From Escherichia phage MirsaeidiM_Esher1: a stretch of DNA of 64,000 nt. Positions 21,735 to 21,855 of this stretch are shown piece after piece (position 1 is the stretch's first letter; each line of letters begins with the position of its first letter). The notes beneath the pieces were generated by a model. It was not told the DNA's origin, did not search any database, and saw nothing but the letters and a program-made list of their open reading frames with translations. The stretch lies in sequence record PQ438048.1, one strand, 5' to 3'. The translations under genes were made by a program, and so were the position numbers.

Positions 21735-21855
21735 GGACTCGGCAGGATTCGATACCTGCAATTCCAGAAGCCTCTTGGCTACTGGGGGTTTACCTTAACT
21801 CTACAATTCCAGAAGCCTCTTGGCTACTGGGGGTTTACCTTAACTCTACAAGTCC
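21735..21855 (-). ncRNA. tRNA-like remnant or structured RNA containing the 45-bp tandem duplication
   Basis: Acceptor-like pairing (GGACTTG/CGAGTCC) and T-arm-like stem with 8-nt loop, but no canonical anticodon arm; interior is two perfect 45-bp repeats. Confidence 0.3.
21760..21849. repeat. perfect 45-bp tandem direct repeat, two copies (21760-21804, 21805-21849)
   Basis: Unit AATTCCAGAAGCCTCTTGGCTACTGGGGGTTTACCTTAACTCTAC repeated exactly; each unit holds a 9-bp imperfect hairpin. Confidence 0.9.

Follow-up and report, generated by a model that had tools for sequence, protein, structure and literature searches.

The window analysed here, a stretch of 64,000 nucleotides from Escherichia phage MirsaeidiM_Esher1 (PQ438048.1), carries a tRNA cluster on the minus strand (22739-20656, located with ARAGORN and Rfam), and inside this cluster lies an unannotated tRNA-like element with a duplicated interior. 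A preliminary description had placed a 45-bp tandem duplication between tRNA-Thr and the next tRNA. [quoted passage not shown] The features of the element and its neighbours are collected in Table 1. This region of the window is 97-98% identical to Phapecoctavirus genomes (phAPEC8-like, subfamily Stephanstirmvirinae) over 15 kb, and phages EF1-1 and iGC_PHA_EC001 have a terminase large subunit 100% identical to the one encoded here.

Table 1. The tRNA-like element of the window and its neighbours, in the 5' to 3' order of the RNA
Feature	Position	Strand	Remarks
tRNA-Asn(GUU), upstream neighbour	21863..21948	-	its CCA ends 7 nt before the element
Whole tRNA-like RNA gene, duplicated form	21734..21855	-	122 nt, from G1 (21855) to discriminator C (21734); 77 nt in every relative
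Acceptor 5' strand GGACUUG	21849..21855	-	invariant in all relatives; also upstream heptamer of the proposed slippage pair
Repeat unit 1 (5' copy in RNA)	21804..21848	-	tRNA-like positions 8-52; D arm, anticodon-like hairpin (21809-21830), variable loop; 3' end GGAAUUG (21804-21810)
Repeat unit 2 (3' copy in RNA)	21759..21803	-	identical to unit 1; hairpin 21764-21785; 3' end GGAAUUG (21759-21765), whose last G is the first base of the T stem
T arm	21742..21759	-	GCAGG, 8-nt loop UAUCGAAU, CCUGC
Acceptor 3' strand CGAGUCC (21735-21741) and discriminator C (21734)	21734..21741	-	followed by AGA: no encoded CCA
Full-length homologue of phage T4 rnaD ('species 2' small stable RNA)	21615..21731	-	117 nt, between the element and tRNA-Thr
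tRNA-Thr(UGU), downstream neighbour	21539..21614	-	ARAGORN and Rfam

Two sigma-70-like promoters on the minus strand (TTGACA-18-TAGATT at 22391-22362 and TTGACA-18-TATAGT at 21263-21234) and a strong intrinsic terminator behind the final tRNA gene (20540-20522, minus strand) suggest that the cluster comprises at least two transcription units, with the element in the first. No promoter was found within the element itself. The RyhB and MicA matches of Rfam at 20515-20585 fall on the terminator hairpin. On the plus strand, terminator-like matches at 21772-21788 and 21817-21833 were discarded, given the weakness of their stems and T tracts and the lack of a plus-strand transcription unit running into the operon. 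Default ARAGORN misses two further genes of the cluster, both with an encoded CCA: a tRNA-Ser(UGA)-like gene at 22263-22353 (minus strand; best Rfam model tRNA-Sec, 37 bits, sub-threshold) and a tRNA-Tyr(GUA) gene at 21955-22042 (minus strand; Rfam tRNA, 39 bits), the latter listed as a 'pseudogene' in Mt1B1_P17. Genome papers on these phages count just 10-13 tRNAs, and neither 'tRNA-like' nor 'pseudo-tRNA' was found in those of the papers searched that mention Stephanstirmvirinae, Justusliebigvirus or phi92.

In its single-copy form the element is an RNA of 77 nt with the sequence GGACUUG-UA-GAGUUAAGGUAAACC-C-CCAGU(C/A)GCCAAGAGGCUUCUGG-AAUU-GCAGGUAUCGAAUCCUGC-CGAGUCC-C, which provides a 7-bp acceptor stem, a D arm with GG, a 4-nt variable loop and a T arm. 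The place of the anticodon arm is taken by a 9-position hairpin under a tetraloop (AAGA or AAUA), whose sequence, CCAGUAGCCAAGAGGCUUCUGG, is usable as a probe target; in an alternative pairing the hairpin has 5 bp and an 8-nt loop, CCAAGAGG, with C at position 33 and no U33. The T loop, UAUCGAAU, is the canonical UUCGAAU with one A inserted, and appears as a 1-nt insertion in the Rfam alignment. Three structural features had been named in the preliminary description, and all were recovered: the 9-position hairpin in each repeat unit, with eight pairs and one U-U mismatch, the acceptor-like pairing of 21849-21855 with 21735-21741, made of six Watson-Crick pairs and one G-U pair, and the T-arm-like stem, at 21742-21759.

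The element resembles a canonical tRNA (RF00005) in its acceptor stem, in the D-arm GG, in the variable loop and in the 5-bp T stem with UCGAAUCC, and the resemblance extends to the location inside a tRNA operon, the U at position -1 and the alignment with the Rfam model from end to end. It differs from a canonical tRNA in having an 8-nt T loop instead of the 7-nt UUCRANY, in lacking a 7-nt anticodon loop with U33 on a 5-bp stem, and in lacking an encoded CCA, with a discriminator that is C or A among relatives. All true tRNAs of the cluster (12/12) encode the 3' CCA that is missing from the element.

These differences are reflected in the scores. When the element was searched alone, the Rfam tRNA model gave 20.0 bits for the single-copy 77 nt, aligned over model positions 1-71, and 20.8 bits for the inner 77 nt of the duplicated form in the window, against a gathering threshold of 29 bits; in kb-scale searches there was no Rfam tRNA match to the element at E<=10. 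ARAGORN made no call on the element at default settings, and at 80% stringency over the whole 2.6-kb cluster it added just the element, tRNA-Ser(UGA) and tRNA-Tyr(GUA), the last two being weak genuine tRNAs. The earlier idea of a tRNA-like element with a duplicated interior agrees with these results: after removal of one unit a 77-nt cloverleaf-like RNA remains, with a relaxed ARAGORN call, and the element is tRNA-like and sub-threshold with one copy as with two. A covariance model built from the element scored 103 bits on the duplicated gene of the window, and its next-best matches were genuine tRNAs (tRNA-Ile, 32 bits, and tRNA-Met, 25 bits). On the clusters of KP13-26, T2, T4 and G2540 this model matched genuine tRNAs alone and revealed no distant homologue, and Rfam families other than tRNA (YrlA, mascRNA, tRNA-Sec class) gave no meaningful match on the element.

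The element is tRNA-derived in shape, as seen from the model alignment, yet it lacks several defining features of a decoding tRNA, with neither CCA nor anticodon loop and with a variable discriminator. Assignment as a canonical tRNA was rejected on the sub-threshold Rfam scores and the missing default ARAGORN call. ARAGORN -mt, whose summary line also counts tmRNA genes, was silent on the element, which disposes of a tmRNA. With the -i option at 50% stringency the program reads the duplicated form as a 'tRNA-Leu with a 46-nt intron', a call that we rejected as an artefact of the lax setting. A quadruplet-decoding or frameshift-suppressor tRNA, to which the 8-nt loop and its 'AAGA' might point, was rejected in view of the C at position 33, the third loop base that is G or U among relatives, the variable discriminator and the lack of an encoded CCA.

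Tandem Repeats Finder, run on the 64-kb window, gives the array at 21759-21856 a score of 189 (period 45, 2.2 copies, 98% matches), by far the highest of any tandem repeat in the window. Direct string comparison shows that 21760-21804 and 21805-21849 are the same letter for letter, so that the two identical head-to-tail copies of the preliminary description are found by both methods. The match between the copies continues past the 2 x 45 bases, by 1 base on the left side and 2 on the right, so that the phase of the repeat is uncertain by 3 bases, which read TTG in the RNA. To judge from its sequence, a perfect 45+45 repeat cannot have a chance origin.

Copy number was then compared across related phages. 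The element is found in 87 GenBank phage records, as a single copy in each (matched span 86-96 nt versus a query of 141 nt), and no matching phage record is identical to the window across the whole array. With a 60-nt query centred on the novel junction, no record exceeded 95% identity and each match was split into two pieces; the junction sequence was not found in IMG/VR either. A single copy is also present at four further loci (two from IMG/VR and two from metagenomes) and in 10 more assemblies from ENA, Logan and NCBI, reached via a neighbouring gene of 98 aa, which has matches in 873 index blocks of public assemblies. The other carriers amount to about 100 related genomes and assemblies (87 from GenBank and 14 others), all of them single-copy, with ABPW7 as one example; the window alone is duplicated.

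The base at position 31 of the element gives the relative timing of the event. It is A in both copies of the window and C in nearly all relatives, with the exception of the closest relative downstream (L027, SRR36615660; 99.2% identical there), which has the same A31 in a single copy. As A31 is shared by both window copies and by this single-copy relative, the substitution C31A preceded the duplication. The duplication is, by this comparison, very recent and strain-specific, lying on a very short branch, in agreement with the recent event proposed before.

The single-copy element is present both in Phapecoctavirus and in Justusliebigvirus (phi92-like: KKE7M, SD2, KMB37, EC.P2). The window and EC.P2 share 75.3% nucleotide identity over 9.5 kb of structural genes, and most of their neighbouring tRNAs are 76-85% identical, whereas the elements of the two differ at 3 of the 77 positions, and at 2-4 of the 77 over all Justusliebigvirus-type loci. 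The binomial probability of such conservation is about 1e-6 if the coding background is taken as the reference and about 2e-4 if the tRNA background is. The conserved block consists of a leader, AGAATTAT (also given as AGAAUUAU), and the 77 nt, and stays fixed while its flanks change among phages: upstream stands either of two tRNA-Asn alleles or an ORF of 42 codons, and downstream either tRNA-Thr directly or the rnaD homologue with another tRNA-Thr allele. The 42-codon ORF replaces tRNA-Asn in phiWec phages and metagenome contigs (L006, L008, L015, L016 and L021); it has a Shine-Dalgarno sequence, is annotated as a hypothetical protein and stops just before the AGAATTAT leader.

Variation within the element was surveyed over about 30 loci. 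The C-run linker varies in length (4 to 6 bases) and composition, and the third tetraloop base (G or U) and the discriminator vary as well. Beyond these, the only changes are C26U and C69U, each of which keeps a G-U pair, G47A and G39A at helix ends of the hairpin (at the base and at the loop-closing pair, respectively), and the C31A of the window and L027, by which an A-U pair takes the place of a C-U mismatch. Compensatory double changes are absent; the sequences are too similar, and covariation speaks neither for nor against the fold. No copy was found in the Asn-Thr spacer of Klebsiella phage KP13-26, so at least some phages of the subfamily can do without the element. It was not found in GTDB genomes, and no homologue was found in E. 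coli genomes, in a search that is blind to short complementarities.

The preliminary description had called the locus a tRNA-like remnant. The tRNA-like part of this description stands, while 'remnant' would undervalue the element, which is more conserved between the two genera than most of the adjacent genuine tRNAs. Because only 2-4 of the 77 positions differ between genera with a background identity of about 75%, the single-copy element is probably a functional non-decoding RNA and not a decaying tRNA. Part of the near-invariance could come from recent exchange of a short block between co-infecting genera and not from selection. The invariant tRNA body, the free variation of hairpin loop and discriminator and the lack of CCA argue for a role that depends on the tRNA-like shape and not on decoding.

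The borders of the array point to the way in which it arose. The heptamers GGACTTG (positions 1-7) and GGAATTG (positions 46-52) stand 45 nt apart in every single-copy relative, and these same heptamers, 6/7 alike (GGAMTTG) and exact in TTG, form the borders of the array in the window. Since near-identical heptamers bound a perfect 45-bp repeat, the most direct explanation is replication slippage between GGACTTG in the acceptor 5' strand and GGAATTG at the junction of variable loop and T stem, which would have duplicated the 45 bp of positions 8-52 with their D arm, anticodon-like hairpin and variable loop. The slippage may have been helped by the stable hairpin that this segment contains. The array has the hallmarks of slipped-strand (microhomology-mediated) tandem duplication, namely perfect head-to-tail copies, a short bordering direct repeat and a stable hairpin within the unit, and does not differ from it in any respect; the comparison concerns the origin of the array and not the function of the element.

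The 122-nt RNA is predicted by ViennaRNA to fold with -44.6 kcal/mol, with pair probabilities of 0.96-1.0 in the outer acceptor helix, the T arm kept, and both hairpins within a multiloop closed by the acceptor stem. An alternative fold, in which the inner GGAAUUG serves as acceptor strand and leaves a 45-nt leader, is about 10 kcal/mol worse; a U precedes each of the candidate 5' ends. From its position, the tRNA-like small RNA would be co-transcribed with the minus-strand tRNA operon, and tRNA processing enzymes would excise it, with RNase P acting at the 5' end and trimming at the 3' end. Both steps should survive in the duplicated RNA because the acceptor stem and T arm are intact in the predicted fold, as far as general knowledge of tRNA processing applies. 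The duplication is most likely neutral or tolerated, and not a designed feature.

Taken together, we consider it probable (about 0.7) that the window carries a very recent, strain-specific slippage duplication within a conserved, unannotated, non-decoding tRNA-like RNA gene that would be transcribed and processed with its operon. An unlikely alternative is that the element is a dead pseudo-tRNA, its conservation resulting from recombinational spread of the block or from hitch-hiking in the cluster, and its duplication being neutral. Such a gene would fail the tRNA thresholds and lack CCA and the 7-nt anticodon loop, as this one does, and the lack of covariation, the absence from KP13-26 and the visibly mosaic tRNA clusters also fit it; if the element were inert, the finding would reduce to a strain-specific indel in a pseudo-tRNA. 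Decay is nevertheless difficult to reconcile with 2-4 differences in 77 positions between genera that are about 25% diverged, when most adjacent functional tRNAs are 15-24% diverged, with a block kept in at least three upstream and two downstream contexts, and with substitutions that fall outside stems or are wobble-compatible. It is highly improbable that the duplication is an artefact of assembly, sequencing or amplification and that the true genome is single-copy. Although the duplication occurs in 1 of about 100 relatives and is known here from the assembled record alone, its borders show microhomology as in biological slippage, at 90 bp the array would fit within a typical read, and assemblers usually collapse short tandem repeats and do not create them.

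An adaptive duplication, in which the RNA acts as a tRNA-mimic decoy or sponge for a host factor that binds or cleaves tRNAs and the doubled D arm and hairpin alter its valency or specificity, is very unlikely. The conservation of the element implies a function, its neighbours are target tRNAs of PARIS AriB (PMC12409363), and acceptor stem and T arm are kept in the predicted duplicated fold; against this, the duplication is found in 1 of about 100 genomes without recurrence, nothing links the element to any defence system, the hairpin loop has no UAAU, and loop and discriminator vary freely. The probability is lowest, again very low, for a block conserved at the DNA level (a recombination joint between tRNA cassettes, or a homing-endonuclease or protein-binding site) or for part of a small protein gene. 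Module boundaries do match the edges of the block, an HNH/NUMOD4 gene occurs in the cluster of one relative (L032), and an automatic 'hypothetical protein' covers the element in KMB37. However, invariant stems with variable loops suit an RNA, no endonuclease stands beside the element in the window, and two of the three sense frames meet stops within the first 21 nt. The C-run has between 4 and 6 bases among relatives, a variation that would shift the frame of any ORF on either strand, and protein coding on either strand was ruled out because of the 1-nt length polymorphism in this run together with the stop codons.

The slippage duplication in a conserved non-decoding RNA gene, which we prefer, leaves the role of the 77-nt element to be considered. 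The gene order Lys(UUU)-Tyr-Asn(GUU)-[element]-Thr(UGU), seen in the window and in L012 and L022, groups the three tRNA species that are cut by the PARIS nuclease AriB (tRNA-Lys, tRNA-Asn and tRNA-Thr), and the versions of these tRNAs in phage T5 neutralise PARIS (PMC12409363). It is conceivable, but distinctly unlikely, that the element is a tRNA mimic outside decoding, either a decoy or modulator against host tRNA-targeting immunity or a processing or regulatory RNA acting with the rnaD homologue, with the duplicated allele as a live example of rnaC-like enlargement. A decoy would fit the fixed place of the element within this set of three tRNAs, which acts against PARIS. The hairpin loop of the element lacks the UAAU motif that lies close to where AriB cuts. 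As for the genuine tRNAs of the window, the tRNA-Thr allele departs from the AriB site at position 39, with G in place of U, and tRNA-Asn keeps UAAUCC.

The homologue of rnaD next to the element was identified by about 150 Tequatrovirus records that match it with 77-79% identity over about 82 nt, directly after tRNA-Arg, which is the annotated rnaD site of T4. Compared with T4, it shows a compensatory change in the 5' (first) hairpin, and both RNAs have GGCGCA as their last bases. The homologue stands outside the Tevenvirinae, and its cassette is confined to some members of Phapecoctavirus, where a distinct tRNA-Thr allele accompanies it. The roles of T4 RNAC and RNAD are unknown (PMC3014915), in the case of rnaD for about 50 years, and a scan of that T4 region gave no Rfam family match for rnaC or rnaD.

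By analogy of place and predicted fold, T4 rnaC ('species 1' small stable RNA, NC_000866 70908-71046) is the closest known analogue of the element. It is likewise a non-decoding RNA of a phage tRNA operon, beside rnaD, and in its fold an acceptor-like helix surrounds a canonical T arm and two hairpins, as is also predicted for the duplicated element. In contrast, there is no sequence homology between the two (matches of 8-11 nt only, E >= 1.4, blastn with word size 7), and rnaC is 139 nt long and stands after rnaD, whereas the element stands before the rnaD homologue. In addition, the single-copy element is of ordinary tRNA size, and the enlarged interior is restricted to the duplicated version of the window. 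Another tRNA-shaped product outside decoding is tRNA-Other of Bacillus cereus, which has a biological effect according to the description in PMC3399842. As described there, it differs in being a bacterial chromosomal gene with a recognisable anticodon loop, and homology to the element is not expected.

The duplication itself is ordinary; the conserved element in which it lies and the rnaD homologue next to it are of greater interest. The tRNA clusters of phages have come to be seen as counter-defence arsenals, and annotation pipelines list just the above-threshold tRNAs; the element is unannotated in about 100 public genomes of coliphages used in therapy and biocontrol studies. The duplicated allele offers a natural variant for probing the inner arms, and arm duplication by slippage is a plausible route to oversized tRNA-like RNAs such as T4 rnaC.

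Several other features were observed in these clusters. Besides the element, the cluster has a second ultra-conserved gene, the tRNA-Met(CAU) at 20656-20734 (minus strand, 79 nt), with 94-96% identity between Phapecoctavirus and Justusliebigvirus; its counterpart was labelled 'pseudo' by the annotators of Mt1B1_P17. Shigella phage SF1-1 (L003) has an insertion of about 190 nt directly after tRNA-Thr (~1905-2095), between the direct repeats CAACA(C/T)AACA. Neither the window nor other relatives have this insertion, for which a small mobile element or a structured one is a possible explanation. In a Logan assembly (L032, ERR15003838), an HNH/NUMOD4 homing-endonuclease gene lies inside the tRNA cluster (1971-2489), recalling segB of the T4 tRNA region. 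Cryptic tRNA-like genes may be common in such clusters. By eye, an unannotated tRNA-like sequence was seen between tRNA-Tyr and tRNA-Asn in Klebsiella phage KP13-26 (L023, ~1330-1407), with the T arm GGGAGTTCGATTCTCCC and an acceptor-like pairing GCGGGTG/CGCCTGC.
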